64,000 nucleotides of DNA from Macrostomum lignano. Its lineage: Eukaryota. The position numbers and the translations under genes were made by a program. Location of the stretch: positions 1 through 64,000 of the forward strand of contig NIVC01002995.1 of NCBI GenBank assembly GCA_002269645.1, in the 5' to 3' direction. Positions 1 to 22,408 of this stretch are shown here, one piece after another (positions within the stretch are counted from its first letter, which is position 1; each line of letters starts with the position of its first letter). The notes beneath the pieces were generated by a model. That model was not told the DNA's origin, made no database searches, and saw only the letters and a list, made by a program, of their open reading frames with translations.

Positions 1-2
1 TA

Positions 3-436
3 GACACGCGTAGGGTTGAGTTACGGTTAGCCACAGAGTATCAAGTTGATTTCAGGGATGCACATTCCAATAACTTTAGAAGACTGTTGGGATTCAATTC
101 GGAAGTGTATTTGAAACCATTTGAGAGAGCTCAAATCCAGCTCGGATAGACGGAGCTAGAAGTGCGATCATGGTGTTTCTTCAATATCAAAGGGCGTTTT
201 ATCACTGATCCAGCAATGGAGATCATTTAATTGATAAGCAAATACTTCTTTCAATTCCATCGTTCTCTGTCCCAATGGAAGTAAAATTATTCAAGAACCT
301 GCAAAATCCTGTGTACCTACCACTAACTAAAACATGTTGAGCCACATTCGACTTTGTCATCGAAGATGAGTCTGGTGTTCTATACGACTTTGATGGCGAG
401 GAAATATTTATAAATTTACACGTACGACAAATATGA
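3..436 (+). pseudogene. Minor capsid protein (penton-like), C-terminal part, frameshifted
   Basis: Manual translation across indels gives FRRLLGFNSEVY...ILLSIPSFSVP(N)GSKIIQEP(A)NPVYLPL...FVIEDESGVLYDFDGEEIFINLHVRQI*. This fits the Polinton penton C-terminal pattern (LLGF; PG.KI.E.P..P.YLP; D..G...DF.GE.I.I.LH). It lies directly upstream of the protease. Confidence 0.75.
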
Positions 437-445
437 GTGTTAAAA

Positions 446-876
446 ATGAGCGAAGCTGAGACATGGAATGCATTTAAACAAATGTTTGGTACTGACACTA
501 CGACTAATATTGATCTGATAAATTGGGCAAAATATCTCAAGTTAAAACCATTTCGCTATGCCATGAGAGATGAAATTGTTGATTTACCACAGTATGGTTA
601 CTTTATGACAAATATTCACACTTCGAAAGAACGGGGTATACATCATTCAGCTATATTTTCAGCTCCTGATAAGGTTTATTTTTTTGATTCCTATGCCACT
701 ACGCCCACACTGCGAAATTATGGAAAAGTTTAATCACACAAAATAGAATATGTGGAGACATGGAAGAACAAATTCAAACTTTTGATAAGAAATTTTGTGG
801 TCAAATGTCGCTGTACTTTTTACACCGAATCGATAAAGGAGATAGCTATAATGAAATTTTGCAGCAATTAAAATGA
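446..876 (+). CDS. Adenain-like cysteine protease (capsid maturation protease), one frameshift near 710
   Basis: ORF 437-733 has NIHTSKERGIHH and YFFDSY (catalytic His/Asp region). After a one-base shift it continues LWKSLITQ...EEQIQTFDKKFCGQMSLYFL...QQLK* (oxyanion Gln and catalytic Cys), stop at 874-876. Confidence 0.87.
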
Positions 877-2219
877 GTTACAAGAATACTGCCAATCAAT
901 TTGGTTACTCGACAAATTCAAATGATATAGCACCTGGAATAACAATAGCGTTAGCTGATGATCGCTACATCAATGAAAATGAAGGATATAAGAGAGAGGA
1001 AATAGATAATTTATTGTTAGCAAAGAGAGATGTTTCAGACTCTTATTCAAAGGAAGATAGTGACGCAATGAATATCACCATGCTACAATTAATTGACGAT
1101 GCTCATGGGCGCGTAAACAATGTCTACACAAAAACCGAAATTGACACTAAGATGTATTCTAAAACCGAAATTGACACTTTGTTAGCAGAAAGGCAAGGTA
1201 CTGTGGGGGGTACAGAGAGTTCGAAATTAGTCAATATTCTTTCATTACTGACTTCAAACGCTTCCGATCCTGACATGAAAGTGACCGCCTTCTCATAACT
1301 CTTCAGCAGCATATCATGTTGCAGATTCAAACCAGCTTCAGAATGGAGCAGTGTAGATGACTCAGACAAGTGGATACGAGTTCAATTTCTGAAAAGAGCT
1401 AGGAAAGTTGTAGAGATTAAAGTTGGAAGGAGAGGTGTGGCCTGGTTGGTCTGTTAGTGTTAGTCTAAATGGAACAAACTGGACACCTGTTGAACAAAGT
1501 GCACCATTGAACTACGAAGGGGGCAATGCACATCTTAGGAAAAAATACCCAATCCCTCATATTATTTTCATTATTCTCTAAATTTTTCTGGTTCCGTAAA
1601 GCTTACAAAAGTTGAATTACTTGGAGACAAACAGTGGTTAATGATTTAGTGTGGCCTATAGATAGACTTCAAGCTGTACCAAAGCTATACGTAGACAATG
1701 CACTTGAATCAGTGGAGCTGCGACTAAGGCGGGACTAGGTTTCAAATCTTATACAGGATATATCCCCTCACTAGCAACACGTCAAAACTATAGAGAAAGG
1801 GGTTTCAATGTAGCGTCATCAGGAGCATTTGAAACGTCAGATAATTGGGGTTATATAGTATTTAATTCAGAATGGGCATCGAGGAATGAACCCAATTCTT
1901 ACATTGAAGTACAACTTCCTGAATCTATTCAAATTTGGAAATTCGGATTGAAAGGAACCAAAGCAGTAGGTAGTGAAATTATAAAAAATCAACCAAAAAG
2001 TTTTATTCTGAAAGGAGCAATAACAAGAGAGACTTTAGGAATATTTTTTCTACCGAAAATGCTGGTTTAGTTCCTGGAGTGATGAAATATTTTGAAGTAG
2101 CTTCCACCGAAAAATTCTCCGGTTATAGAGTGCATATTAATTCAGCCACTGAAGGATCAACTGTTCTTATTGTTTCAGGCTTTCAACTTTATCCGACTTT
2201 AGACATAATTGTCACATAA
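873..2219 (+). pseudogene. Putative fibre/receptor-binding protein: coiled-coil repeats plus two F5/8 type C (discoidin)-like domains, several frameshifts
   Basis: YTKTEIDTK/YSKTEIDTL repeats and PKLYVDNAL resemble fibre-shaft repeats. Domain 1 fragments: EWSSVDDSDKWIRVQF...WSVSVSLNGTNWT...KLTKVELLG. Domain 2 fragments: GYIPSL...GFNVASSG...VFNSEWASRNEPNSYIEVQLPESIQIWKFGLKG...FSGYRVHI...SGFQLYP, stop 2217-2219. AATAAA at 2282. Confidence 0.6.
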
Positions 2220-2312: not shown

Positions 2313-2893
2313 GCAAGTAGGCAAACTTCACTCAGTGACTAACGCAGGAATTCGGGGTTGTATATTTTTCATCTACTTTTGCTACACACAGAAGCAATCT
2401 CGCAGAGCAATAATATGGTCGGCTATTGTCCAACCACCGTAGCAAAGCAAGTAGGCAAACTTTACTCAATGAGTAACGCAGGAATTCGGGTTGTATATTT
2501 TTTATCTATACTCTTGCTACACAGAAGCAAGCTCGCACCGCAACAATATGGTCGGCTATTGTCCGACCAAGATAGCAAAGCAAGTAGGCAAACTTCACTC
2601 GATGACTAACACAGGAATTCGGGGTTTTATATTTTTCATCTACTCTTGCTACACAGAAGCAAGCTCGCACCGCAACAATATGGTCGGCTATTGTTCGACC
2701 AAGATAGCAAAGCAAGTCTTTTTTTAGAGGCAAACTTCACTCGATGACTAACACAGGAATTCGGGGTTTTATATTTTTCATCTACTCTTGCTACACAGAA
2801 GCAAGCTCGCACCGCAACAATATGGTCGGCTATTGTTCGACCAAAATAGCAAAGCAAGTAGGCAAACTTCACTCGATGACTAACGCAGGAATT
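2313..2893. repeat. Tandem array of a ~133-bp unit (~4.3 copies) inside the viral element
   Basis: GCAAGTAGGCAAACTT recurs at 2313, 2447, 2580, 2712 (with a T-run insertion) and 2854. Confidence 0.95.
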
Positions 2894-3557: not shown

Positions 3558-3769
3558 AGACTTGAGTTTCCACTGTATAAGTGTTTAAAGTAGTTATAAC
3601 ATCTCTAGAAATAAAATGAATTACTATCATGCTAAATCTCTTTAAGCCAGGCCACAGAATGCTCCGCGGAGCCTGGCCATTTGTGTCTGAAAATATTTTC
3701 TTTTGTGTTCCCCCTTATTGTAAACTTCCACTCGAATCAGATTGTGACTGTTAAATTTTCCATAGAAAA

Positions 3770-4114
3770 ATGGAAGCTAATAACCCAAATGTTCGAAATG
3801 CTCTGCCACAAAAATATTATGATTCTATTATAAATTTCTCTCAAATAAAAACACCCATTCGAAAGGCTCGACTAATTGCAGAAATTGATAAAGCTTACGA
3901 TGAATATAAAGCAGAAATATTAAAACACACCGATTGTAAATGCCCCCCATATTTGTATTCATTCAGAGTATATCTTGCACATGTTGATAAATGGGCATTG
4001 ATTTCGAGACAGCACATAAGGAATGATGAATTTTTCGTCATGCTTAAGTTGAACATTTTCAAACTCCCCATAACCCTTGAGAAGTACATTGAAACTAATG
4101 AATTATATTGTTAA
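3770..4114 (+). CDS. Hypothetical viral protein (114 aa)
   Basis: ATG-initiated ORF in AAAAATGG context within the gene-dense viral block; no family recognised. Confidence 0.55.
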   Translation: MEANNPNVRNALPQKYYDSIINFSQIKTPIRKARLIAEIDKAYDEYKAEILKHTDCKCPPYLYSFRVYLAHVDKWALISRQHIRNDEFFVMLKLNIFKLPITLEKYIETNELYC

Positions 4115-4130
4115 ATTTATTTTAAATAAA

Positions 4131-6595
4131 ATGGAAAGAAAAAATCAAAACGATTCAAGTTTCTCTCCTGTGATCGTACAGGATCCGCTTCAAAAACATG
4201 ATGCCCCACCACCAAGATTGACAAATTTAAAACAAACAAAATCGTACGATAAACTAATTAATCTCTATGGAGAACTTAATTTTAAATTCGGAAGTTGCAG
4301 TGTAACATGGAATAGTAAAACAAAGAAAAAATACCGTCAGGAATGCCAAACAAAGCAGATAGGAATTCAACCTCCCCACCATTTCGACCAGAGGTAGACA
4401 ACATGATTTGGATAGATACTAGAAACTCAAATATAACCGTAATCGATATTGATAATGCTGACCTATGCCCTGAGTTGAATGAACTGTGTATGACTCATTG
4501 TGATTGGGTTGTTCAGACAAACAAGGGACACCACTTTTACTTTAACAAGGTAGATGGATTGAAAGTAACGATTCAACAAAGTGTGGGTTTTGATATTCCC
4601 GCCTTAGTATTTGCTCCACCAGGTTTCTATTATGTCGATGGTGAAATTAAGGAATACAAACGTATAAAGCCCGAAAGGTTAATAGACATGCCAGATGTAA
4701 TTTTTAATGAGATAAATAGATTAATTAAGCCACAGGATAAAAATGAAATCCAAGAACAAGATAAACAGGCACTAAAAAGCACCGTTCCACCACCCACTTG
4801 TGAAGGAGCTTCAAAGTTGTTAAGTATAATACAACACAAAAACCAAGACTATGATTCTTGGTACAAGGTAGCACTTATACTCCGCGACATAGACAGTGGT
4901 GATGAAATGTACAAAGTATTCACTGATTGGTCAAAAGTAAATTATGATAAGTTCGATTCCGAATCATGTAAAAAGGTGTGGAATAGCACCAATACCAGCT
5001 CTGCTGATGCACAGGACAGACTTACTATCGGTACGTTGAAGAAATGGGCTAGTGAAGAAAATTATTGTAAATATAAGGAATGGAAAAGCAAATATGATTA
5101 TTATGGTAGGATTGAGTATCTTGATGATAATTTCACTGACGTTAACATAACCAACTTTGTTTATGAATATAAGAAGAATAATATAATTTACAATAGCGAT
5201 GGTGTTTACTATTTTGATGATGATAAGTGGAGAGAACTAAGTAGTATAAATGACATATTTCTTAAAATATCAGACCTTGTTAGCGGTGAGTTAAACCACC
5301 GAAAGACTAGACTCGAAATTGCAATTAAGAAGGCGGCTGATGATAAAGAAAAGTTAAAAGCACTTGAAAAGAAACTACAGAGTACAATCAAGAATATAAA
5401 TTCAATACAAGGAGCCAACAAACTCAAACAGGTAACTACTTTGTTCAAAGAGAGGTTTACTAACAATGAAATTGAATTCGACATGAAATGGAATTTGCTA
5501 GGGTTTGATGATGGAGTATATGACCTCGATACAAGTGAGTTTCGCAAGCATAGATATGACGATTACGTTACTAAATCAGTGGGATATTATTACTCGGATG
5601 TACTTAGAGTGAGTGATGACGACTATGACTTCATTGTTAATCTGCATAACCAAATTCATCCCGATCCAGAAAATAGAAAGAGTTGGGAATCCGTTATAGC
5701 CACAGCTCTAATGGGTAAGAATGTTGAAAACTTTATAATGTTTGATGGCGCTGGTGGAAATGGGAAGGGGGTTGAGGACAACCTACTTCTTAGAACTCTA
5801 GGATCTGATTATGCAGCACCACTGAGTCCTGATGTTTTGAATTTACCAATAAGAATAGACAGGCCACAACCAGCCCTAGCACAAATTAATAAAAAGAGGT
5901 TGGTTATCAGTCAAGAAGTAAGTGGTGTCTTGAACAATGCATCAATAAAATTACTAACTGGTGGTGGGGTTATCCAAGCTAGAAATTTATATTCAAGCCA
6001 GTGTAATGTCGTTTTACACGCAACCCTAATAGTCGAATGCAACAACAAGCCTGACTTTAGACAAAATATTGGAGATGCAGAAAAAAGACGAATTATAAAT
6101 ATTAATTACCCATGTAAATATACAACAGATACCGACATCATTGATCATGCGAAACACATTTATAAAGCCGATTCATATCTTAAAACCGAGGAATTTAAGA
6201 ATAAATATAAGTTTGCTGAGATGAAACACCTACTAGAAATTTTCAAGCAAACAAAGGGTGAAATATATCTATCTCAAAATGTAATTGAAAACACTAATAA
6301 ATTCATACAAAATTGTAATGGGTTTTCTCGCTTCTTTGAAGAGAATTATGAATTTTTAGAAACTGAGGAAAAAACATTTTTGCTTATTAGAGAAATTTAC
6401 ACTGCCGCAACAGAAAGTGAATACTATAGGACTCTAGCCCAACGTGAGAAACGTGAATTCCAACAACAATACATAACAGATTTCTTCAAGAATCACAATG
6501 ACTATTGTAAGTATTATAAGGATAGATATAGGCGTAGGATAGATGGTAAACAGCAAGAAACTAGAAATGTTCTGTTTTACTGTGTAAAAAAATAA
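4131..6595 (+). CDS. Primase-helicase: PrimPol (AEP) + PriCT-2 + D5_N + SF3 helicase; N-terminus joined through a frameshift at ~4330
   Basis: AEP motifs VIDID and QTNKGHHFYF; PriCT-2 DYDSWYKVALIL...DWSK...LTIGTL; D5_N LLGFDDGVYDL; Walker A GAGGNGKG; motif C ECNNKP; RR finger. ORF 4131-4397 and ORF 4343-6595 join if one A is added to the run at 4326-4331. Confidence 0.92.
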
Positions 6596-6616
6596 ACGAA
6601 GATGTTATCAATGAGA

Positions 6617-9600
6617 TTACATTGGCTGATGAGGAATAGATCTGATAGGATCCAAATAATATCTTTTATCATCTAACGGACTCATTGTTTGTTTCATAAT
6701 CTCACGAATATATATTATATTTTTTTCAGATACAGTCATACTTACTCTACCTCTTTGAATATCTTTGTAATCTGTCAATAGTATGTTTTTAAAAGTTTCA
6801 AACTTTATATTTGTACTGCTTTTATCAACCCCCTTGATCGTAACACACTCTCCTGAAACTGTAGTGAAAGCATACTCCTTTGACCGCAAGAATACAGCTT
6901 CGGAAATTATTGAACCATTCATTTCATCTTTCAACTTTCCAATTACTTTCTTATTCTTCTCGGAGTATAGTGGATGCTCTCTTGGATAATCCGATGTGTC
7001 TAAGTGTTCTTTAACTTTTCCAAGATCCTCATAAACATCCTGAGTAATCACTGAGAATATTAGCGAATCACAATCAGAATAGTGCAATTGACAGCTTTTC
7101 CAATTCTTCTCAATAAAATTGTAATAGCAATCGTACATTAGCATTTTTGCATAATCCAGAATGGCCATCCCTAAATAAATTGGCTTGTCACACGCAATTG
7201 TCTTTTTGTACATTTGGATACCAACTGCATCCTCACTAAACATAATGAAATCTTTGAAATTTGGTTTAGAAAAATAACGCCTTGCAGTTTTTTCTTCAGC
7301 TACAAGATGAAAGTTCGACCTATTCTTTACATTTTCGATTGTTTTACCGTAGAATGAGTTGTTTAGTAGTTTCCACAGGTCTTTCTCAAATTTAGTTTTT
7401 GCTTCTATTCTCCGCCTGGTATTAAATTCGATGTATTTACTCAACCAGTTTGATTCTTTGAATGAAATAATTCTATGAACTCTCATAACTCGCATGCCCA
7501 TCTTCTCATAAAACTCAAGTAGTCTGTGATGTAAAACATATTTCTCCTTGTTGTAAAATGTCAACATCAACTTGGATTGAACAAACTTTTTCTTTTCGAC
7601 TTCGAGGTATTGCTTCTGTATGTCAGATAAATCCTCAAATCTAGTTGTTCGTTTCTCAGGAGCCAGTGGATATTTACTTGTAGCTTTCTTACATTCCTCT
7701 GTATATTGAAGGTCAACTTCAAGAAAACAACCCCTGCCATTAGGAATATTCTTGTGATACTCTAGATCATTTTCAAACTTGAAATCTCCCACAGGTAGAT
7801 TTTTCATCATTGCTTCACCATATAAATTATTCTTGTCCAAGTATAGCATGTACGACGATTCAGAATTGCTGTCATAACTTTCTAAATACTTGTTATTCAT
7901 TTTTTTATATCGATCTCCAAGAACTCCAGAGAAACCGCCGCGAATACCACTTTCTACCATGGATATCATTTCTTTATCACCAAGTAATTCCAATTCCACA
8001 TTAGTATATTTCAACCCACATGCCCACGATAATCCAGAAAGGGAAAAGCAATACGCAGGATCTATCTTGAAATATTTCAAAAATGTTGATCGAAACTTCT
8101 CAAAAGCATTGACAAATGAGTAAATCTTTCTAATTACTGCTGTTGTATCACTGGGTGGCAAATATTTTATTTCTTCTTCAGAGAGTGTAAATGGTGGTTC
8201 CAAAAACCTAGATCCATCTAAAAACACAACACCACTGGTATAATTCCCCCACTTGATTGCAACATGGTCTTCAGATGTTTTAGAAATGAAATCCAATTTA
8301 TACGCTGTATTCTTTATTCGTGTTAATGGAACTATCAAATAGTTTAGATCTTTTCCAGATTCATTCAGAAGAAACAACGGTACTGTTTGATTCGCCTTGC
8401 CCTCCTTGGTATTACATGATTGACATGCTGCGCCGCGATATTTACCATTGTAGTGATTATGCTCTCGAATTTTTTTACTATCTACAAATGGCCTTGAGCA
8501 GAGAAAACATTGTTCTGCCGCTTTGTAATCAGTCTCTTCGACATCACTTAATCTTGGATGTTTATATCTATCCATTTCATTTTTTATATGCTCAAACTTT
8601 TTTATTACGGTTTCAACGAATGATTCCACTGTAGTATTTGAAATAATATTTGATTTTATAATGTCCTCATAGTCGGAACTAGTAAAAAGTGTCCATTGTG
8701 ATAGCTCTAGTGATTTATCATCCATCGTTACATAATCTAATATTGCATGAAACACAAATGGTTTTCTTACACTCATGTGGTAGTTTTTAAACTTTAATAT
8801 CCTCTTATCAATCTTTGGAACTTCAATTGACACTTTGAAGTCATTACAGATTGCTTTATGATTATCCAGTGCATCCTGGGAGTATTTGACTTGAAGACAC
8901 TTTCGACAAAGAAAAACCCTGTTGTAATTTTGGGACGTGAGGAATAAACACGTCTGTTATTAAGCAATAATGATTTTCAACAAGTAGTAAATCAATAACA
9001 TTGGGGTTGTCGTAATCTTCTGTCAGACGAATAGAATATATTGACTCTTTAGTATTTATATCCCTCAATCCAAACACATTTATATGAAGACTGTTCAACT
9101 TTTCAATCTCAGAGATATCTCGAATGTCCACTGGAAATTTAACGTCTCCTAAGTTTATTTCATTTATATACTGTGTATACTTACCAACTCTATATCTATG
9201 TTCCTTCACAGGATGGAGCTTTGCTAAAATAGACCAGAGAAAGCACCTATTGTCTGTAGTGTTCTTAACATTTACTAATGCGTTTGATTTAATTCGAATT
9301 TGAATATAAGTTCCTCCTTTCAACTGATTAATGCCAACAACTTTCAACACAATCTTTACTAACTTAACAAAATAATATCCTGATCCCCTTTCATTAAAGC
9401 TATCCTTCCATCCATCGAATTCATCCAGAATATCCTGAATTGTACTTTCTATACTAGTTTCCACTTGGAGAAGATTTAACAAAGTTCGATACTTTGAATG
9501 ATATTGGAACTCAATCCAACTGTCGGTAGTTCCTTTATAAAATTCTGCGACAAAGGAAATTCTGTATTTTATTGAATCTCTAGCCATCAAATATTCGGAA

Positions 9601-9683
9601 AGAATTGGGGAGATTAAACCGCGAATTTCTTCAACGGAGTCGAGATCAAATTCATAAGAGGCCGCTGGTATTTTCCTTTCCAT
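6617..9683 (-). CDS. Polinton-type (protein-primed family) DNA polymerase B with an endonuclease VII-like Zn insert; frameshift at ~8947
   Basis: N-terminal part: GSGY, GGTYI, NVKNTTDNRCFLWSIL, FPV, INVFG, HYCLI. After a one-T loss: CRKC...H...C, CFLC...REHNHYNGKYRGAACQSCN, GIRGG, motif A YLDKNNLYG, motif B KLLNNSFYGK, motif C YSDCDS, LRSKEY. About 1020 aa when joined. Confidence 0.93.
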
Positions 9684-9708
9684 TTTTAAGAAAAAAAATT
9701 AAACAGAC

Positions 9709-10449
9709 TCAAGCATAGGGGGGTGCACTTGGAGCATTTGATTGAAGATTGAGTGTTGCCGAGTACTCTTTTGGCTTATCGGCTAGACCCAATTTTTCTC
9801 TCAGATCTTTCTCCAGCAGTTCCTTTTTAATTTTTTCCTTCGCTGAATGACCAAGTCTACTCTCTTTGAGAATTTTATCAACGACTTCCGAATGGTTAAC
9901 ATCTTCAGGCGCAACACAGGCGTCTAACAATTGGTCTCTTTTCTCTCTGTATTCTGAATAAATTGCAGCAGCTGCTTGAACCTCTTCAAGAGTTAATCTA
10001 TAATCATCAACTGCTTTTTGGGAGTAAATATACAATCTCTCTCTGTATTTATTGGCCAGATCTCTGAGAACAATGTATTTTGCCTTCTGCTTTTGGCAAT
10101 GAATTTTCACAGTTGCAAACAACGACGTGGATTTTACAGCTTCAAAACCACTCATTGCCCCGATTACTACTCCAATGACTAAGGGATTCAATGTCAGTAT
10201 CGATGTTGCTATGCCAATTCCTGTAGCAGCCAAGAGACTTACATTTCCTGTCACAATGTTGATCCAATTTATCCTGCTACTTTGCCGTTTGTACTTTTTT
10301 ACCTTTTTGCTATAAATTGTAAGATCTTTCGTAATGCATTCAATACTGCCTTTGATTTCACCCTTTCTCTGATTGAAATAGTCCCGCTCCCTCAAATCTG
10401 CTTCATGCAGCTCAACCACAGGATAGATGTGTTCATTTTTATCATTCAT
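9709..10449 (-). CDS. Putative membrane protein of the conserved Polinton/adintovirus family (GasderminX-like), C-terminal PSAPPY
   Basis: IYPVVEL...KKYKR, a Gly-rich hydrophobic segment (VSLLAATGIGIATSILTLNPLVIGVVIGAM), KAKYIVLRDLA...SQKAVDDYRLTLEEV. The pattern was recalled for adintovirus accessory proteins, not searched. ATG at 10449 in TAAAAATG context. Confidence 0.65.
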   Translation of the reverse strand: MNDKNEHIYPVVELHEADLRERDYFNQRKGEIKGSIECITKDLTIYSKKVKKYKRQSSRINWINIVTGNVSLLAATGIGIATSILTLNPLVIGVVIGAMSGFEAVKSTSLFATVKIHCQKQKAKYIVLRDLANKYRERLYIYSQKAVDDYRLTLEEVQAAAAIYSEYREKRDQLLDACVAPEDVNHSEVVDKILKESRLGHSAKEKIKKELLEKDLREKLGLADKPKEYSATLNLQSNAPSAPPYA

Positions 10450-10968
10450 TTTTATATGGCGATTATGCCTAATTGTCAATTATGTCTATACCTGACTGAA
10501 TATCTAAAGCATTTCCTAGAAATAATGGTTTACTGAAGGCCATTTTATATATATATAATTTACTATCGTTGAATTGGATGACACTTTCATATTGTATATA
10601 CCTGAAATTGCATTAAATTGACCCGTGAATCCAACTTTTCTCATGGTTTTAGAGCTGGAATCGTGAAAATTGCACTTTTTAAAAAAATTAGAAAATCACA
10701 AAAAATCGCTGTTTTCAGACCATTTTCACCTGTTTTTAGTCATTTTTCAGTTATTTTTAGTGATTTTCAAAATGAGTGAGGGCATGAGGGCGAGGGCACC
10801 CCCCCTTTTTAAAAGTATAAAAAATCCGGAAATTCTGTCTTCTGAGAAATATACCACAGGCCAATGCCCCCCACATGCCCTCACCCTCAACACCCTCAGT
10901 CACAGATATATGTATATTTATATATTTTTATATTTATCACACCCCACTTGAACCCATGACCTCCTGGT

Positions 10969-11067
10969 AGTAGTAGTATGTTATAAGGGGTTGAGTCATC
11001 CAGCGAGCTGGCGCGCAATGCGCCCGAGCAATAAGTGTGGCGCAACCCCTTATAACATACTACTACT
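10969..11067. repeat. Perfect 25-bp inverted repeat forming the Polinton-type terminus
   Basis: AGTAGTAGTATGTTATAAGGGGTTG (10969-10993) is the exact reverse complement of CAACCCCTTATAACATACTACTACT (11043-11067); 49-nt GC-rich spacer. Confidence 0.95.
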
Positions 11068-12215: not shown

Positions 12216-14225
12216 ATGAGTCACAGGGGTGCCACTGCTGGCTCTCCAAATCCAGCCGCTTCTGCTCAGGAAAGAAAGTTTGTGGCAAGCAACACTACAG
12301 ACTCAGAGCCACTTCTTGCTAGTACCATTGCCGCACTGCACCGGTTGTTAGAAAATCAATTCTGAAGAGAGTCCCGTTCTCAATCGTTCTACCAGAGTCA
12401 ACAGAAGGAAACAGCTACAGGCATTAAGCTTCGGCCGCCACCGTTGTTCACTTGCACCACGAAGTTTGATGCCTGGGAAGCTCAGTTCAATGCGTACATT
12501 AAAGCTCATAGGGTTCCTTACTTCCAACAGACTGCAGTCCTGCTGTCCCTTCTGGCACCAGAATGCCAGGAGTACTTTCTAAATAACAATCTCACGGACC
12601 AGACCTGTGAAGAGGCACTGAAGTCTATGAGAGCGCGTTACACTGACTCTAACGTTAGGGAGAAAAGTTATATGGAACTAGTTGTCGCTCACCAGAACAG
12701 CACCGAATCGATTGCCGAGTTTTACGATAGGTTAGCATCTTATGCCCGGTTAGCAGACCTCTCATCAACCGAAGCTGAACCTTTATTACGAGCGAGGCTG
12801 TGCCATGGCATTCGGGATAAGGTGCTCGCAGAAAAACTCTTGCTTTGGAGCAGTGATGCAGGGGTGAGTGATGAGTCTAGTGGGGCAAAGGCTAAGACTG
12901 TCCCGTCTGCCGAGTTGGTTAAGAAGGCCAAGGAGATCGTTGGTATTCAGCAACTTCTGCAACCCGCTCCAAACTCCTCTGCGAATATCCGTGTCCTTGA
13001 AACCGAGAAGGCGTCTCTGGAGGCAAGAGTAGAAGAGCTAGAGAGACTCCTTCGACTCCAGAACCAGGCTGGTGTCTCCAAGCCTGTTGCAGTCAATCAA
13101 CCACAACCTTCTAACAAGTCAATCCGAAATTCAAACCAACACAAGCCACATAACAAGCACAAGAATAAACAACCGCCAAATCACGGGGCAACTCAGCAAT
13201 TTGGTACAGCGGTGTCCAGATCAAGGAAATGCTACAGGTGCGGTGGTGAGGACCATTTCATTGCCGACTGTCCCATCACACCATCACCTCCAATAGCTCA
13301 CCAGACCGCTGCTAAGAGTCATCCTCCAAATAATCAGGCCCAGCATATGTCGGAGGTTGGTTCAATTGTTTCCTGGAAGGGGAACTTCGGGTTCATTCAA
13401 TCAGAACAACTTCCCGACCAGCTCTTCTTTCACCGTGGTGAGCTGTCTGAATCCTTGAACCGTTCGGCTGACCAGCACCAACTCGTGGGCACAAGAGTCC
13501 AATTCCATCGGAAAATTGACTCGGGTAAGAAGCGCGATCAGGCTTGTGGGGTAAGGCCAATTCCAGCGATCAATCAGACACATTTAGGCCAAACTAGTTC
13601 CGATGAGCCTGCGGTGGATTCCAGCTTCTTTGTCCAGTTGCGAATCGGGGACAACCAAGTCATGGCTTGCCTTGACTCGGGGGCAAACGCCAGCGTGATG
13701 GGGAAGCAGGCCATGGAGCGACTGGTTGAAGCCGATCCGATCAACAACATCTTTTCGCCAGCGCACAAAGGCGCAAAGGCGACGGCTTTCAACGGGTCCA
13801 CCACCCAGATTTTAGGCTCTTTACGTTGCGAAGTAGAACTAGGCAAAATTAGAAAGCATCACGTTTTCCTTGTGACCGAAGAATCCACTGCTGAATCGCT
13901 CTTAGGTATTGATTTCCTCCGTGGTTTCCAGGTGCTGCTGGACTTCACCTGTGGCCAGGTACTCGTGGCCGGTGGGGCAGTGCCTGTGATTGAGGGCGAT
14001 AAGGGGGTGTTTCGCATACGCCGTGTTTTGGCTGCTTGTACCTCTGAGCTACCACCTCACTCGGAAACCCTAGTGCCGAGTCGAGTGATTGACACTGTGC
14101 CAAACCTGAGTGGCACAGTCTCCTCTAAACTTTTCAATACAGACTCAGAATTTTTTGTAGCTAGGTCAGTGGATAGAGTCAGCCCGACGAATCACGTGTT
14201 AGTCCGATTGCTAAATACGACGTAG
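12216..14225 (+). CDS. Gag (capsid, CCHC knuckle, cold-shock domain) fused to aspartic protease; frameshift near 12360-12420
   Basis: ATG at 12216; PPLFTCTTKFDAWEAQF gag start; CYRCGGEDHFIADC at 13230-13271; CSD at 13353-13562; protease LDSGA at 13671-13685. Confidence 0.9.
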
Positions 14226-14299
14226 TAGCGATCAACCAGCTAGGATTGAGCGTGACCAAGAGATTGCATCTTTTCAAGAGCTAGGCCATGGAGAAGTTG

Positions 14300-16088
14300 T
14301 AGTACAACTGCTCTGTCTGAGCAGGATTTTTCCATAGACAACTGCAGTCTCCTCAACAGTAAGCTTTCAAGATTACCACCGCCAGAAAAAGGTGCAGCAG
14401 AATGGCTTGTGAAACAGTTCAGACTCGACCAGTCCAGTCTGACTCAAAATCAATTAGCCCTAACTTTGCGCATGCTTAATTACTTTTTAAGCCAGATCTC
14501 GCAGGATGATAGTGATCTCGGTCGAACAAAGCTACATGAAATGTCAATCGATCTGATTGAGAAGGACAGTCGTCCGGTTCTGCTCGCTTCGAGGAGAACA
14601 ACTCCAGCTCAAAAGGAGTTTTTAGACCAACATATTAGTCAACTACTCAAGCAGGATGTAATTGAAGAGTGTGATTCAGACTGGGTATCACCGATAGTGT
14701 TAGTTAAGAAGAAAGACGGGTCTCAGAGACTATGTATTGACTACCGAGCTGTAAACAAGTTAATTAGACCCTGTAGTTTTCCATTGCCATTAATTGAGGA
14801 GTCGTTTGACAGCCTGGCTGGTTCTTCGGTGTTCAGCAGTCTTGATTTAACCTCTGCCTATTGGCAGGTGGGAATCAAAGAAGAAGACAGAGATTTTACA
14901 GCTTTCTCTTGTCCACAGGGCACGTTTCGTTGGAAAGTAATACCATTCGGAATCAAAACAGCCCCAGCGAATTTCGCTAAATTAATGCACAAGGTATTTC
15001 AGCCATTGCTTATGAAAGTTAGCCTAATTTACCTCGATGATATAATAATAAAAGCACAGAATAATGACCAAATGATCGCGCACCTAGCGCTGGTGCTTTA
15101 GCAACTTCGCAAGGCCAATCTGAAGATTAAACCTGCGAAGTGTGAGCTATTTAAAGACAGAGTTAAGTTCTTAGGGTTCATAGTCTCGTCTAACGGTATC
15201 GAAGCCGACCCAGCCAAGACTCGAGCGGTCCAAGAGTGGTGTAGACCGAAAGACAAGAAACAGTTAATGGCGTTTCTTGGCTTTGCCAACTATTATAGGA
15301 AGTTTGTACAACGATTCTCAGTTATTGCCACGCCTCTGTACGCGCTGGCTAAAGGTTCGGAAAAGTTCGTGTGGTTAGAACGCCACGAACGCGCATTCCA
15401 AGAACTCAAGCGCTGTTTGTGCAACCCACCGGTATTAGCGTATCCGGACTTGTCTCCCGACAGTCGTGGGTTCGTGCTCGACTGCGACAGTTCACTTGAA
15501 GGAGTTGGCGGCGTGCTATCTCAGATAGGGCCAGATGGGTCAGAACAAGTCGTTGCGTACGCATCTAAGAAATTTTCACAGAGTCAGTCGAACTATTGTG
15601 CAACCATGCGCGAGTTACCAGGGTTAGTACTCATGCTAGAACACTTTCGTACATATCTGTTAGATCGACCTTTCACAGTCAGAGTGGATGCCGCAGCCCT
15701 GCAGTGGCTTCATTCTAAGAAACATGCCACAGGCATGCTTGCGCAGTGGCTCGCGACCATAGATTTGTACGAATTCAAGATCGAACAGTCAGCTCTTGAA
15801 AGAGTCGGAGAATACGACTTTGAGGTCCAGTACCGGCCAGGGAAAGACCATGTGGCGGCAGATATGCTGAGCCGAAATCCTCGCTTTCGTGCCGATCACT
15901 TCGACTGTCCGTCATGCAGCATGGTACCTGAATTTCAAGAGAAATTTAAAAGCGAGAAAGCTAAAAAGTCAGCATCAGTTAACATCAGAAGGCAACAAGT
16001 TGACGCCGCAGTGCAATGCTATGTTGCCAGGACGTATGTTGCCAGACAGACTCGCCTGTCACGAGCTGTCACAATATCGAAACAGTAG
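14300..16088 (+). pseudogene. Reverse transcriptase and RNase H with an in-frame TAG at 15099-15101
   Basis: SPIVLVKKKDG, LCIDYRAVN, LDLTSAYWQV, YLDD. The same frame resumes after TAG (KCELF...FLGF; DCDSS...GGVLSQ; YASK; REL). Confidence 0.92.
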
Positions 16089-18196
16089 TAACATCAGCCT
16101 GTCAAACCGAGAAATTCACAAGCAACACATCAACACAGTGCACATTTTTCACTACAGTTCCGGTCACAGAGGCCGCTTTCGAAGCGACAATGCCAATCGA
16201 AACGTCTCGACTAGCAGTCAGGGTAGCTGAAGTCGAACAATCGGCATCCAGCGAATCCTCAGTCGAGTCAGTTGACCCGGAACTAGAATGGGCACGTGAA
16301 TCACAAGAGACTTGCGTTGACATCGCTCAGCTGATCGATTGCGTGCAGGGCCGTACAGAAAAGCCTCCTAAGGCTAGCCTGCAGAGTTGCAGTCGTGAAG
16401 TTAGAATCTTGTGGTCGCTGTTCGATGAACTGAAAGTCGAAAATGAGCTCTTATATCACTTTAAGCCGAAAAAGAACACAAAATCAGTCAATAAGCTGTT
16501 AGTGATTCCAGAGACCGCAGATGTTGTCGAGTTGGTGTCAAGATACCACCGACAGCTCAATCACTGTGGCATAACAAAAACTCTGACAGCTATTCGATCT
16601 CGTTTCGCCATCGCCGACCTAGAAACTTATGTCAAGGGAATCATAGCTGAGTGTGACGTCTGCGCCAGAACAAAAAAGTCAAAACTGAAGCATAAAGCCC
16701 CGCTGCAGCCCGAACTCTCGGGCTACCCGAACCAGGTGGTCCACGTCGATCACGCAGGTCCGTTTCCCGAGCAAGCAGGATATAGGTACTTGCTCGTAAT
16801 GGTTGACCGATTTTCGGGTTTTGTAGAGGTCATTCCCGTAGCCGATGTCTCAGCGGAAACGACTGCAGTCAATATCCTGACCGAATGGATCGCGAGATAC
16901 GGGTGCATGGAACAGATAGTCTCGGACAACGGTACAGCCTTTGTCAACAACACCGTATCTGAGCTCACTCGACTTCTCGAGGTGGACATGGCGCGTGTCA
17001 CAGCACGACGTCCACAAGCGAACGGGAAGGTTGAGCGAATGATACAGACAGTAAAAGGTCAGATTCGTGCTATTTGCTTGGATCGGCAGTTCGATTGGCC
17101 TCTTGCAGCCCGGCTAGCAGCTCTCTCGATTCGGGCAACAGTCGCCGAATCCACCGGATTTTCTCCCGCAAAGATCTTCTTTGGACACGAGCTAAATCTG
17201 CCACTAGATCTTGTTCATAATCCACCAGTTCAAGATAGGTACAGACCTGAACTGTATGCACATTATCTGCACCAGACGCTCGTGGAGGTATCAGCGGCTG
17301 CGCGCCATGCCCGTGGAAAGGCCCAAGAGCGCCAAAAGCGCTACTATGACCGCAGCGCGCTGAACTCTAACTTCGAGATAGGCGATCTTGTATGGGTCCT
17401 CAACGCCGACCATCGTGGCCTCGACAGTGCTGTCTGGTTTGGACCATACAAGGTGGTGCAAAAGATTTCGGAGAGGAATTACAGACTCATTCCAGAATTC
17501 GCTAGAATAAATCCTTTGGAGCGCATTCCCAACCCGTCTCACAATGTGTACAATGTCGATCGGATGAAGCGCTGTGTGCGCAAACAGACTTATGAAGATG
17601 TTGTGGACAGGTACGGGACTCGCATGCCAGCCAGAATGCCGTCGTCAAGAGTAGGCTTGCGAGGAGAAGACCAGTCTACCTGGTTGTCTTCGTGCTCCAT
17701 CAACGGTTCCAATCAAAGTGCTGCGACTCAACCGCTCCAGGTATCAGAAAGTGCATCATCAGCGCTTGTGGATGAGTCCCAGCAGGTTACCACAGTTGCC
17801 GCTCCCGACCTGCCAGTTGCAGTGCCACCACCGCCGATAGAGCCCTTGGAAGGAGAGGCGGGAGTAATCGATGAAGGTGATCCGCACGAGGTTTCAAATG
17901 GTGAGCAGAGTGGCAGAGCTGTGTTCGATGAAAATGGCGATCTGTTGGAGGAGGCGGCAGAAGATGTCACCGAGGAGCAAGCTCCGGCTGAAGACAGTCC
18001 AGTTAGGGGGGAAGCCGTCATGCCGGTAGAAGCCATCGAGGATCCTGACAGTGAGACCACGATGGAAGCTGTCGCTCCACAAGAACAGATTGACGCAATT
18101 TCCTTGCCTCAATCGACACAGACGACTAGATCCGGAAGGATTGTTACCAAACCGGCACGTTTTCGAAATTTTCTAGCACAGCTATTTAATAAATAA
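16016..18196 (+). CDS. Integrase (HHCC, DDE core, long acidic C-terminal tail), frameshifted relative to RNase H
   Basis: YHRQLNH...CDVC; VHVDHAGP; SDNGTAF; QANGKVER; terminal TRSGRIVTKPARF. Confidence 0.93.
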   Translation: MLCCQDVCCQTDSPVTSCHNIETVVTSACQTEKFTSNTSTQCTFFTTVPVTEAAFEATMPIETSRLAVRVAEVEQSASSESSVESVDPELEWARESQETCVDIAQLIDCVQGRTEKPPKASLQSCSREVRILWSLFDELKVENELLYHFKPKKNTKSVNKLLVIPETADVVELVSRYHRQLNHCGITKTLTAIRSRFAIADLETYVKGIIAECDVCARTKKSKLKHKAPLQPELSGYPNQVVHVDHAGPFPEQAGYRYLLVMVDRFSGFVEVIPVADVSAETTAVNILTEWIARYGCMEQIVSDNGTAFVNNTVSELTRLLEVDMARVTARRPQANGKVERMIQTVKGQIRAICLDRQFDWPLAARLAALSIRATVAESTGFSPAKIFFGHELNLPLDLVHNPPVQDRYRPELYAHYLHQTLVEVSAAARHARGKAQERQKRYYDRSALNSNFEIGDLVWVLNADHRGLDSAVWFGPYKVVQKISERNYRLIPEFARINPLERIPNPSHNVYNVDRMKRCVRKQTYEDVVDRYGTRMPARMPSSRVGLRGEDQSTWLSSCSINGSNQSAATQPLQVSESASSALVDESQQVTTVAAPDLPVAVPPPPIEPLEGEAGVIDEGDPHEVSNGEQSGRAVFDENGDLLEEAAEDVTEEQAPAEDSPVRGEAVMPVEAIEDPDSETTMEAVAPQEQIDAISLPQSTQTTRSGRIVTKPARFRNFLAQLFNK

Positions 18197-19430
18197 AAAT
18201 CTATCGCAACTCGCTCGGACCGGGTAAAATTAATACTCAGAAAATATTCCTTTAAAAACGCATAAAAACTAATATAATTGTCACAAAAAATAAAATAAAC
18301 AGGGTTGTTCCAAGATAAAAAAGTACAGAGTTCATACATCATCAGTTCATACATGTAGTTTACGGTCCTAGAGTTTAGTTAATTTGCATCGTCATTCAAT
18401 CGCGTGTCGTCTGTACTTAAGTAGCGCTTGTCGGTTTTTAGCGCGTTTTCTGCCGCCGTTGTCAAGCCTGTGTGGCTGTGCAGAGCACCATAGGGTCTCT
18501 GTTCGTCTGGTTCCGAGGTCGGTTCCGGCGCCGTTGATCGGCGTGCCCTTGCGGTCGTTCTTGATCGGTCCTCGGCTGGGTTCGTGTTTGTGCGCGGACC
18601 TGAGCTCGCCTCCGGGCTTGCTCGAATTCTTTTCCCGTTTCTCTCGTGCTCCGTTTGCTTGGTGTTTCTAGGTTGCTAGGTGCGCCCTGTTTCGTCTCGC
18701 TTTGGTGTGTTCTCTTAGTCATAGGGTGTGCCTGTGCCGGTTTTGCGTCTCGTGATTTGCTTTGTAGTGTTTTGAGTTGGTTTGCGACACATTTGATATT
18801 TCCTATAATTAATCATTGTGAGTACTTTAATTCGGCTCTAACTCGTTGCACCAATATTGTTCAATATTTTGAAATGCGAGAAGCATTCCTTTGACAAATA
18901 TCTATTTTAATTCCTGTTCGTTCCAATGCTTTGTGTATTTTTCAATATTTTCATCCGAAACTGATTCCAACAATAATTGAACTCGCATGTAAAATATTTT
19001 GTTCGTTATTTTCGGAATAAGTTTTTGTTAATTTTTTTTCGTCGCTGTTCGAAATATTCGTATTTTCTGTTCTTCGCTTTTCAGTATTTTTTAGTAGAGG
19101 GGCGGGTGTGACAGTGTGATTCGTAGAAGCGCGTGTATCGTATTTCTTTATTTTCATATGCATACCGTGCTACTACTGTATTCTTCCATTTATTTTAACA
19201 ATATTCGTACGTATTATTATCGCGCTATTTTTACTGTTAATTGCTTTGTTTTTGTAGCCTCGTATGTATTTATTCTGTTATTTGTATTTCATTCATATCG
19301 TTATTATTTCTCGTAAAGTAGTTCTACTTATGTACATGTACTGACGTATGTTATTCTTGCATGATCTATTTATCGATTAATTTGTACATGTACATTGCGC
19401 GCCGCGTGGGGGGTTGTTTGTCTGGGTTTT

Positions 19431-22063: not shown

Positions 22064-22408
22064 ATGGCCCAGAAGGTGCAACTCAGCCAGGAAGAGCTGG
22101 CCTCCAAGGAGAAGGAAGAATTTGAGACTGGCCCCCTGAGCGTGCTGACCTATTCGGTTCGCAACAACACCCAGGTGCTGATCAACTGCAGAAACAATAA
22201 GAAACTCCTAGGCCGGGTCAAAGCCTTTGACAGGCACTGCAACATGGTGCTGGAAAATGTGAAGGAGATGTGGACCGAGGTGCCCCGGTCTGGCAAGGGC
22301 AAGAAGAAGTCGAAGCCGATTAACAGGGATCGCTACATATCTAAGCTGTTTCTGCGCGGCGATAGTGTCATCTTGGTTCTGCGCAACCCGCTCGCTTCAG
22401 GAAAATAA
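22064..22408 (+). CDS. SNRPD2: Small nuclear ribonucleoprotein Sm D2
   Basis: [11 protein letters not shown]...[41 protein letters not shown]...[21 protein letters not shown]; uninterrupted ORF. Confidence 0.97.

Follow-up and report, generated by a model that had tools for sequence, protein, structure and literature searches.

Analysis of a 64,000-nt stretch of Macrostomum lignano contig NIVC01002995.1 (the window) led us to a Polinton family whose polymerase lacks the proofreading site in every copy compared. With a probability of roughly 60%, replication of this family would combine that polymerase with protein priming that was likely kept and with a captured primase-helicase that likely supplies strand separation. 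Both genes, a pPolB and a convergent AEP-SF3 gene, lie inside an ~18-kb element with TIRs, 6-bp TSDs, capsid and integrase genes (Table 1), copies of which measured ~18.3 and ~18.7 kb.

The element and its gene content

Matching 6-bp flanks were found in three of the six contigs in which both ends could be read. The remainder of the virion module was taken from a sister copy and comprises the ATPase, MCP and RVE integrase; Pfam rve scored above the cut-off in that copy, as did PF21738 and PF04665 for the double jelly-roll MCP and the A32-like packaging ATPase. Pfam gave no match for a minor capsid protein or a cysteine protease, for which candidate ORFs resemble ORFs of other Polinton loci; the corresponding labels in Table 1 are presumptive and draw on position, motifs and the matches in other Polinton loci. 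By its pPolB-vOTU, phi29-like fold, RVE integrase, MCP/ATPase, TIR/TSD and length, the element is a Polinton/Maverick (Polintoviricetes). Several homologues of the pPolB match PF03175 and the protein of this family does not; among Adintovirus PolB classes, OTU with pfam03175 defines Alpha and OTU without it Beta (PMC8502044).

Table 1. Features of the Polinton within the window, ordered by position.
Position	Strand	Feature	Basis or remark
1..2219	+	Part of virion module: minor-capsid-like 3' end, protease-like ORF, F5/8-domain gene	Remainder lost at contig start
2313..2893	.	Tandem array, period ~142 bp, 4.3 copies	
3770..4114	+	114-aa ORF accompanying the helicase cassette	Conserved across copies
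4098..6595	+	AEP (Prim-Pol type)-PriCT-D5N-SF3 primase-helicase; frame break near 4330 here	832 aa in a sister
6617..8106	-	Polymerase domain through C-terminus; motifs A, B, C with catalytic Asp	
8107..8385	-	Exonuclease remnant, Exo II-III part; Exo II Asp retained, ~72 residues including KGxYPY and Exo III Tyr/Asp gone	
8386..8562	-	Endonuclease VII-like insert; EH is the clade norm	Homologue comparison
8563..8788	-	Exonuclease remnant, Exo I part; Asp/Glu pair altered, ~20 residues gone	Sister and homologue comparison
8940..8960	-	Frame break splitting polB into two ORFs, nearly private to the window copy	Sister comparison, short-read contigs
8963..9310	-	vOTU protease domain of pPolB; Cys and His retained	Viral OTU structures match, Z ~8
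9311..9683	-	pPolB N-terminus, terminal-protein-like region	Label from position and secondary structure, after PMC11161782
9709..10449	-	SLATT-like ORF, in the element body common to the exo-intact variant	Matches below curated cut-off
10487..11067	.	TIR (~575 bp), ACTACT terminus; final ~100 nt form a long hairpin	z -8.2, 0/200 shuffles

Loss of the exonuclease site

An earlier note on this DNA had described a polymerase with intact catalytic motifs in a 738-codon open frame. Motifs A (YLDKNNLYG), B (KLLNNSFYGK) and C (YSDCDS) are present as quoted there, while the frame spans 719 codons from the ATG and 779 from stop to stop. The true start of polB is at 9683, and the 273-aa ORF (8862-9683) is the polymerase's own terminal-protein/vOTU part, which appears as a separate ORF in the window copy because of a frame break near 8950. 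This break was absent in 23 of 24 covering sisters, and short-read contigs from four runs match the sister reading at this site. The predicted pPolB structure, an AlphaFold model built on exo-intact relatives, aligned to phi29 polymerase over 508 residues through the polymerase end (Z 18.8), and a sequence search of solved structures returned matches to endonuclease VII and zinc fingers only. Motif A carries a Lys found in just 1 of 267 homologues, motif C has Cys in place of Thr (1 of 266), and the terminal-protein region is just 26% identical to its relatives; these three features count against the explanation that we prefer.

Alignment to homologous pPolBs revealed that the catalytic residues of Exo I and Exo III are lost and not merely shifted. 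Among the metal-binding carboxylates, the Exo I pair is altered, the Exo III Tyr/Asp is absent and the Exo II Asp alone is retained, so that the degeneration of Exo II previously proposed holds for its flanking His and Tyr but not for the Asp. That Exo I has lost its Asp/Glu pair was likewise borne out; the HAILD reading, however, is specific to the window copy among the sequences compared, since 23 of 23 covering sisters read YAILD. KGxYPY and Exo III are missing as claimed, not in one piece of ~100 aa but through a deletion of ~72 residues (the spacing is 38, whereas the 48 closest homologues have a median of 110) and a further ~20 residues after Exo I. The EH in the endonuclease VII insert, noted earlier as standing in place of DH, occurs in 46 of 48 homologues and is a clade trait, not a lesion. 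All four carboxylates are retained in 241 of 247 homologues, and the six exceptions are apparently one point change plus truncated or internally deleted gene models. Judged by its residues, this pPolB would not qualify as a proofreading family B polymerase, which carries the four carboxylates and the Exo III Tyr.

In 24 of 24 sister copies compared, the catalytic residues of Exo I and Exo III are gone and the in-frame ~72-residue deletion is present; none of these copies has an intact Exo domain. The exonuclease lesion is thus inherited and derived, and a damaged single copy is ruled out by the shared in-frame lesions together with the omega of shared variants. Beyond this host no close exo-dead relative was found, other best matches among the top ten being 37-53% identical; the sole near-identical protein matched is a member of the same Polinton family. 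Scanning viral contigs with single sequences brought up no relatives, and alignments were required for this purpose.

Estimates of omega, computed from variants present in at least two copies, were 0.14 (0.09-0.22) for palm-thumb, 0.16 (0.06-0.30) for the terminal-protein and vOTU part, 0.19 (0.11-0.32) for the exonuclease remnant, 0.12 (0.06-0.23) for SF3 and 0.31 (0.11-1.05) for the AEP core, where constraint is weaker. The palm, vOTU, terminal-protein part, exonuclease remnant and SF3 are therefore under purifying selection, and the proposal of a selected polymerase with a targeted, inherited loss of the exonuclease site is supported by sisters, homologues and omega alike. The remnant has evolved faster than its counterpart in the exo-intact sister lineage (47 vs 17 unique changes, p 2e-4); a significant rate excess over exo-intact lineages was not detected in the palm, vOTU and terminal-protein regions by what is a weak test.

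A convergent primase-helicase on an exchangeable cassette

The AEP-PriCT-D5N-SF3 gene converges on polB with the 21-bp gap noted earlier, its stop ending at 6595 and the polB stop starting at 6617. A break near 4330 cuts the start of the gene in the window copy and is absent in 16 of 16 covering sisters. AEP motifs I-III, PriCT, D5_N, Walker A and B, motif C and the arginine finger are all present, with a Prim-Pol Pfam match below the cut-off. The closest folds to the structural model, the AEP portion of which is of low confidence, were ASFV PrimPol and poxvirus D5/E5 (E 2e-26 and 7e-19). The three AEP catalytic motifs are essentially invariant across covering copies; a complete primase with near-invariant motifs is not needed for a pure unwinding role, which counts against our preferred explanation.

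Elsewhere in this genome, a body 98-99% identical to that of the element is linked to an exo-intact pPolB and lacks a helicase. This arrangement was seen at 11 of the 30 best loci, and the junction of this body with the exo-intact pPolB is also present in short-read contigs. Each of the two alternative cassettes has its own TIRs. These results show that an exo-intact pPolB lacking a helicase can take the place of the replication cassette. An exo-intact sister lineage resides in the same genome as well (SH-aLRT 98); AEP-SF3 had no match in 17 stretches from this lineage and other host elements checked. At related pPolB loci this helicase was found in 0 of 52, of which just 27 reach 10 kb and two carry an unassigned P-loop ORF. 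The association of exonuclease loss with helicase gain amounts to one event in this material.

Proposed mechanism and alternatives

In phi29, exonuclease-site mutants are described as losing strand displacement (PMC6351526), so that a helicase would make the exonuclease site dispensable, and gain of a helicase is reported to go with loss of the exonuclease in mavirus and PLVs (PMC11161782). According to the explanation that we favour, replication is likely still started from a terminal protein, while the captured primase-helicase likely separates the strands and replaces the displacement of which the altered polymerase by itself would no longer be capable. Judging from phi29, the exonuclease shell may have been retained because it walls the template tunnel. 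The AEP may have a secondary role in priming or repriming on the displaced strand. The helicase would have been acquired first, followed by decay of the exonuclease site. An SF1 helicase fused to a pPolB with complete exonuclease has been described (PMC12721341), and exonuclease loss is thus not forced by helicase gain.

A transition to primase-dependent replication, in which priming falls to AEP-SF3 loaded onto the hairpin ends and the pPolB is left with extension alone, is not favoured and appears unlikely. It is consistent with the complete AEP and its three motifs, the fold closest to ASFV PrimPol and poxvirus E5, the rare motif A and C residues, and the strong terminal hairpin, which is absent from the ends of the exo-intact variant. 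Furthermore, pPolB is described as often replaced by AEP-SF3 in group 2 Polintons (10.64898/2026.06.19.733378), and such an intermediate is predicted by a replacement model (10.1101/2023.10.16.562556). Yet the terminal-protein and vOTU regions remain under purifying selection with no rate excess, none of their 13 near-invariant positions is altered, and the vOTU Cys/His and phi29-like fold are retained, as are the AGTAGT ends, RVE integrase and TSDs; the constraint on the AEP is the weaker one, and a nested inverted end also occurs in the helicase-free sister family.

Pol alpha has a dead exonuclease domain, and a pPolB acting likewise would prime the ends and copy a short stretch before a host proofreading polymerase follows behind the element helicase, leaving its own proofreading unneeded. 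This division of labour would explain why no rate excess extends beyond the exonuclease remnant and why the mutation spectrum is unremarkable, in an element integrated in an animal genome; we nevertheless consider it improbable, given that the entire polymerase domain is conserved to its C-terminus at an omega of 0.14 and aligned to phi29 polymerase all the way to its end.

Loss of proofreading through selection for a higher mutation rate, in line with the low-fidelity enzyme suggested by the earlier note, is very improbable. In a quick tree the palm branch measured 0.68 against ~0.44 in the immediate sister lineage, and median copy diversity was 2.6% compared with 0.4% for the exo-intact variant on the same body. 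However, the palm excess over the exo-intact sister lineage is not significant (62 vs 48 unique changes, p 0.18) and vanishes against another exo-intact host lineage (72 vs 74), while diversity also tracks age and reached a median of 5.3% in the exo-intact sister family. The Ts/Tv of shared variants was similar to that of exo-intact families (2.3 and 1.9 vs 1.8 and 1.6), and neither rates nor Ts/Tv, both weak tests, carry a mutator signature. That the copy or the family is decaying and relies on exo-intact Polintons to copy it in trans, of which the genome has many (at least 150 exo-intact polB matches), is largely refuted. The window copy has two frame breaks and most sisters have some, but the exonuclease lesions keep the reading frame and recur in the sisters, shared variants give an omega far below 1 and no stop codon is common to several copies.

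Comparison with known systems

With the mavirus virophage and pMVRE group 1, as described in PMC11161782 and PMC13215967, the element shares a reduced-exonuclease pPolB, a separate SF3 helicase gene and an RVE integrase. In contrast, much of the exonuclease fold remains here, the helicase bears a full AEP primase where the mavirus gene is described as a helicase only (10.1101/2023.10.16.562556), and the pPolB comes from an exo-intact animal Polinton clade with the endonuclease VII insert. In a quick tree it was nested among exo-intact animal-type Polinton pPolBs at ~50% palm identity; on this tree, which contained no mavirus sequences, it does not classify as a mavirus-clade pPolB. Membership of the exo-intact animal clade makes the loss independent and recent, and the best reading is an independent new case of the mavirus/PLV pattern.

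The PLV/transpoviron pPolB-S1H (Tlr1-like) fusions likewise kept terminal protein, vOTU and palm, lost the exonuclease and gained a helicase, as described in PMC11161782; those fusions have no exonuclease and join an SF1 helicase to the palm, whereas the present family encodes an SF3 helicase in its own convergent gene and retains an exonuclease shell under selection. Multi-replicase polisuviruses (10.64898/2026.10.13.758929) and group 2 Maverick-Polintons with AEP-SF3 (10.64898/2026.06.19.733378) are described as combining pPolB with an AEP-type replicase in one element, with replicase turnover on a common capsid module. In the present family the pPolB is exo-dead, and selection acts on both genes throughout many copies. 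Neither source uses the word exonuclease in its main text; similar cases may be present in the figures and supplements. Nematode Polintons were reported to combine near-identical bodies with very different pPolBs, both classes of which keep all Exo motifs in a text that does not use the word helicase (10.1101/2023.08.22.554363); the alternatives here are an exo-intact pPolB without helicase and an exo-dead one with primase-helicase. ASFV PrimPol and poxvirus D5/E5 share the AEP-PriCT-D5N-SF3 architecture as best structural matches, at 15-19% identity, and serve primer-dependent replication of large viruses. Figures and supplements aside, no animal Polinton with an exo-dead pPolB and AEP-SF3 appeared among the papers listed by the literature searches.

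Implications

Krupovic and colleagues proposed exonuclease loss and helicase gain as mutually compensating in small DNA viruses on the basis of two ancient lineages. The pairing has arisen again here, and recently enough for the genome to house both the sister lineage with an intact exonuclease and an exo-intact counterpart on the same body; the exo-intact, helicase-free element on a near-identical body is a natural control, and phi29 biochemistry offers a concrete reason for the pairing, the exonuclease site being needed for strand displacement. These natural enzymes make both the compensation hypothesis and the route from pPolB to an AEP-SF3 replicon testable in vitro. Only tentatively do we consider that this animal Polinton stands part-way from protein-primed to primase-helicase replication, as an intermediate of replicon-replacement models, with the same capsid-integrase body also spreading with a proofreading polymerase. 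If true, two replication strategies would be in competition on one virus body within one genome.

Loss of the exonuclease site is common to the family

Comparison of the polymerase (pPolB) in the window with its other genomic copies, hereafter sisters, revealed that the shortened Exo II-III segment is common to all 24 sisters compared, and that Exo I reads YAILD in 23/23 covering sisters. The possibility raised by the earlier note, that other copies carry an intact Exo domain, was not borne out in any of these 24. The underlying DNA search returned 43 matches, 27 of them full-length (93-100% identity), and 40 of 56 candidates were scored. Among 267 aligned homologues, all four carboxylates are kept in 241 of the 247 spanning the exonuclease domain. 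The family pPolB has an altered Asp/Glu pair in Exo I and lacks both KGxYPY and the Exo III Tyr/Asp. The same alignment corrected parts of the initial description: Exo II had been regarded as degraded, but the family retains its Asp; the in-frame loss between FLD and AFE is real, but amounts to ~72 rather than ~100 residues, with a further ~20 residues missing after Exo I; and the EH of the endonuclease VII-like insert, previously read as a lesion, is the clade norm (46/48). Viral and metagenome collections contained related loci in which the Asp of Exo III is present in 27/27 and 20/20 of those covering it; one locus has Asn at Exo II. Class definitions followed PMC8502044.

Polymerase motifs A, B and C read as quoted before, and the 21-bp gap to the convergent helicase gene checked out, while the supposed 738-codon polymerase frame comprises 719 codons from ATG and 779 from stop to stop. 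The frame break in the polymerase is lacking in 23/24 covering sisters and that in the helicase gene in 16/16, and at both sites short-read contigs of four runs side with the sisters. As nearly all sisters lack these breaks, natural sister ORFs were used for comparison.

Coordinates of features in the window and in related copies
Feature	Position	Remark
Tandem array	window 2313-2893	period ~142 bp, between virion and replication blocks
Replication block	window ~3750-10472; L030, L047, L049 and others	two arrangements relative to virion genes
Helicase-gene frame break	window near 4330	
ORF	window 8862-9683	the polymerase's own N-terminus, split off by frame break near 8950
Switch point between cassettes	window 9680	
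SLATT-like ORF	window 9709-10449	
Hairpin	window 10969-11067	100 nt, at TIR end, z -8.2
LTR retrotransposon	window ~12600-18200	cold-shock domain match inside gag-protease ORF
Sm D2-like (LSM domain) gene	window 22064-22408	single ORF
RING-finger ORF	L022:437-751	variable region of sister copy; absent from window copy's ORF list
Integrase ORF	L234:4241-5629; L022:8631-9437	starts with PF08398 (phospholipase A2-like) domain; L234 match exceeds cut-off
Exo-intact variant of shared body	G000:C781 (L232-L234), C1449, C25 and others	

Selection, structure and origin of the polymerase

Omega was counted from codon states present in at least two copies, which are not all independent because some contigs share flanks; the endonuclease insert shows too few changes for a judgement. 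In pPolB, values were 0.14 from palm to thumb, in line with the dN/dS below 1 that the earlier note had proposed to check, 0.16 for the terminal-protein-like region (TP) plus the vOTU protease domain of the N-terminus, and 0.19 for the exonuclease remnant. In the helicase protein, SF3 gave 0.12, D5N 0.32 and the AEP core 0.31, the AEP interval reaching 1.05. No stop codon is common to two copies. At the level of sequence, the value for the exonuclease remnant indicates that it is retained for a purpose other than catalysis. The predicted model, which leans on exo-intact relatives in the alignment, renders the remnant as a compact alpha/beta domain; phi29 polymerase aligns with residues 276-970 over 508 residues (Z 18.8), and viral OTU proteases align with residues 99-219.

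A quick palm-region tree nested the enzyme among exo-intact relatives, its nearest neighbour being an exo-intact family from the same genome (SH-aLRT 98). Relative-rate counts revealed an excess confined to the exonuclease remnant (47 vs 17, p 2e-4), with none in TP, vOTU or palm. This nesting, together with the rate excess in the remnant alone, points to an exonuclease loss that is derived and specific.

The element and its primase-helicase

The replication gene pair belongs to a Polinton and lies close to one of its ends; as the window begins at a contig end, the remaining element was read from sister copies. The copy on contig C67 has TIRs of ~575 bp and encodes a double jelly-roll capsid protein and an A32-like ATPase along with an RVE integrase. 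A protein that its source assigns to the flatworm Macrostomum lignano is 95-96% identical. The 6-bp flanks match in 3 of 6 contigs with both ends read, the element measuring ~18.3 and 18.7 kb. Element ends on contigs C67, C5112 and C3947 have mismatched flanks, some equal to flanks on other contigs, which suggests assembly chimeras or duplicated loci; copy counts thus overstate independent insertions. Both arrangements of the replication block have TSD-matched copies, and the alternative junction is present in short-read contigs. In the exo-intact sister family, a nested inverted end of ~280-310 bp takes the place of the TIR hairpin.

Essentially all covering copies of the 832-aa partner protein retain AEP motifs I-III, Walker A/B, motif C and the arginine finger. 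The protein resembles ASFV PrimPol and poxvirus E5, the AEP part of the model being weak, and its relatives comprise one 42% match and otherwise distant proteins, including those of giant viruses. An AEP-SF3 profile search gave no match in 52 pPolB-anchored loci (27 of which reach 10 kb), 80 helicase-anchored loci gave no match to this pPolB class, and the surroundings of six exo-intact host elements contained no AEP-SF3. Within the host genome, an SF3-domain search recovered solely this Polinton family and its decayed pieces.

An exo-intact cassette on the same body

One exo-intact host element shares the family's capsid-integrase body at 97-99% nucleotide identity, with a 100% identical ATPase, and so provides a natural control. 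Its pPolB of 1275 aa has all Exo motifs and a palm 45% identical to that of the exo-dead enzyme; the variant has its own, different TIRs and no helicase. The 30 best loci for the SLATT-like gene, which both variants share, divide into 19 with the exo-dead and 11 with the exo-intact cassette. An assembly artefact as the source of this variant is unlikely, since the junction of the body with the exo-intact cassette is present in short-read contigs and, in the sole such element read at both ends, the flanks agree over the stretch that the contig covers. With a median distance of 0.4% from one another, the exo-intact copies are very young. Most of them cluster tightly in a single group among helicase-type copies, and part of the inner TIR of the helicase type survives in the exo-intact copies. 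Together, these features suggest that an exo-intact cassette captured the body, although the root is uncertain. An old copy on contig C12 (L294-L295, G000:C12), in which a helicase-type TIR, a 114-aa ORF and a 5' helicase fragment are joined to an exo-intact polymerase, is a decayed recombinant of both cassettes.

Proposed mechanism and relation to known systems

Protein priming is likely retained, given that the element still has its TP, the Cys/His of the vOTU, AGTAGT ends and the integrase, and that either polymerase is found with TIRs of its own. Counting against this are the completeness of the primase and a pair of rare residues, one in motif A and one in motif C; in phi29, the motif A position has a role in protein priming. 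Low fidelity may be a cost of exonuclease loss; as for the earlier proposal that it was selected, no mutator signature was detected in tests that were weak.

In phi29, the template tunnel is formed in part by the exonuclease domain, and strand displacement is lost in exonuclease metal-ligand mutants (PMC6351526, PMC4974454); by analogy, the exo-dead pPolB would need unwinding help. In the simplest history, the helicase would have been captured first, after which the exonuclease site, by then dispensable for displacement, would have decayed while its shell was retained.

Exonuclease loss with helicase gain has been described as a compensatory pattern in mavirus and PLVs (PMC11161782, PMC13215967), whereas a counter-example retains exonuclease and helicase together (PMC12721341). 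Elements with two replicases have been reported (10.64898/2026.10.13.758929), as has substitution by AEP-SF3 among group 2 Polintons (10.64898/2026.06.19.733378), and pPolB swaps are known from nematode Polintons in a survey whose classes, possibly excluding this pPolB class, have conserved Exo motifs (10.1101/2023.08.22.554363). A replicon-replacement model predicts such intermediates (10.1101/2023.10.16.562556). The main texts of the literature searched showed no animal Polinton combining an exo-dead pPolB with AEP-SF3, and one preprint figure marks pPolBs with a stand-alone SF3 helicase. To the proposed exonuclease-loss/helicase-gain rule, the animal Polinton described here adds a case that is recent, independent and well controlled.
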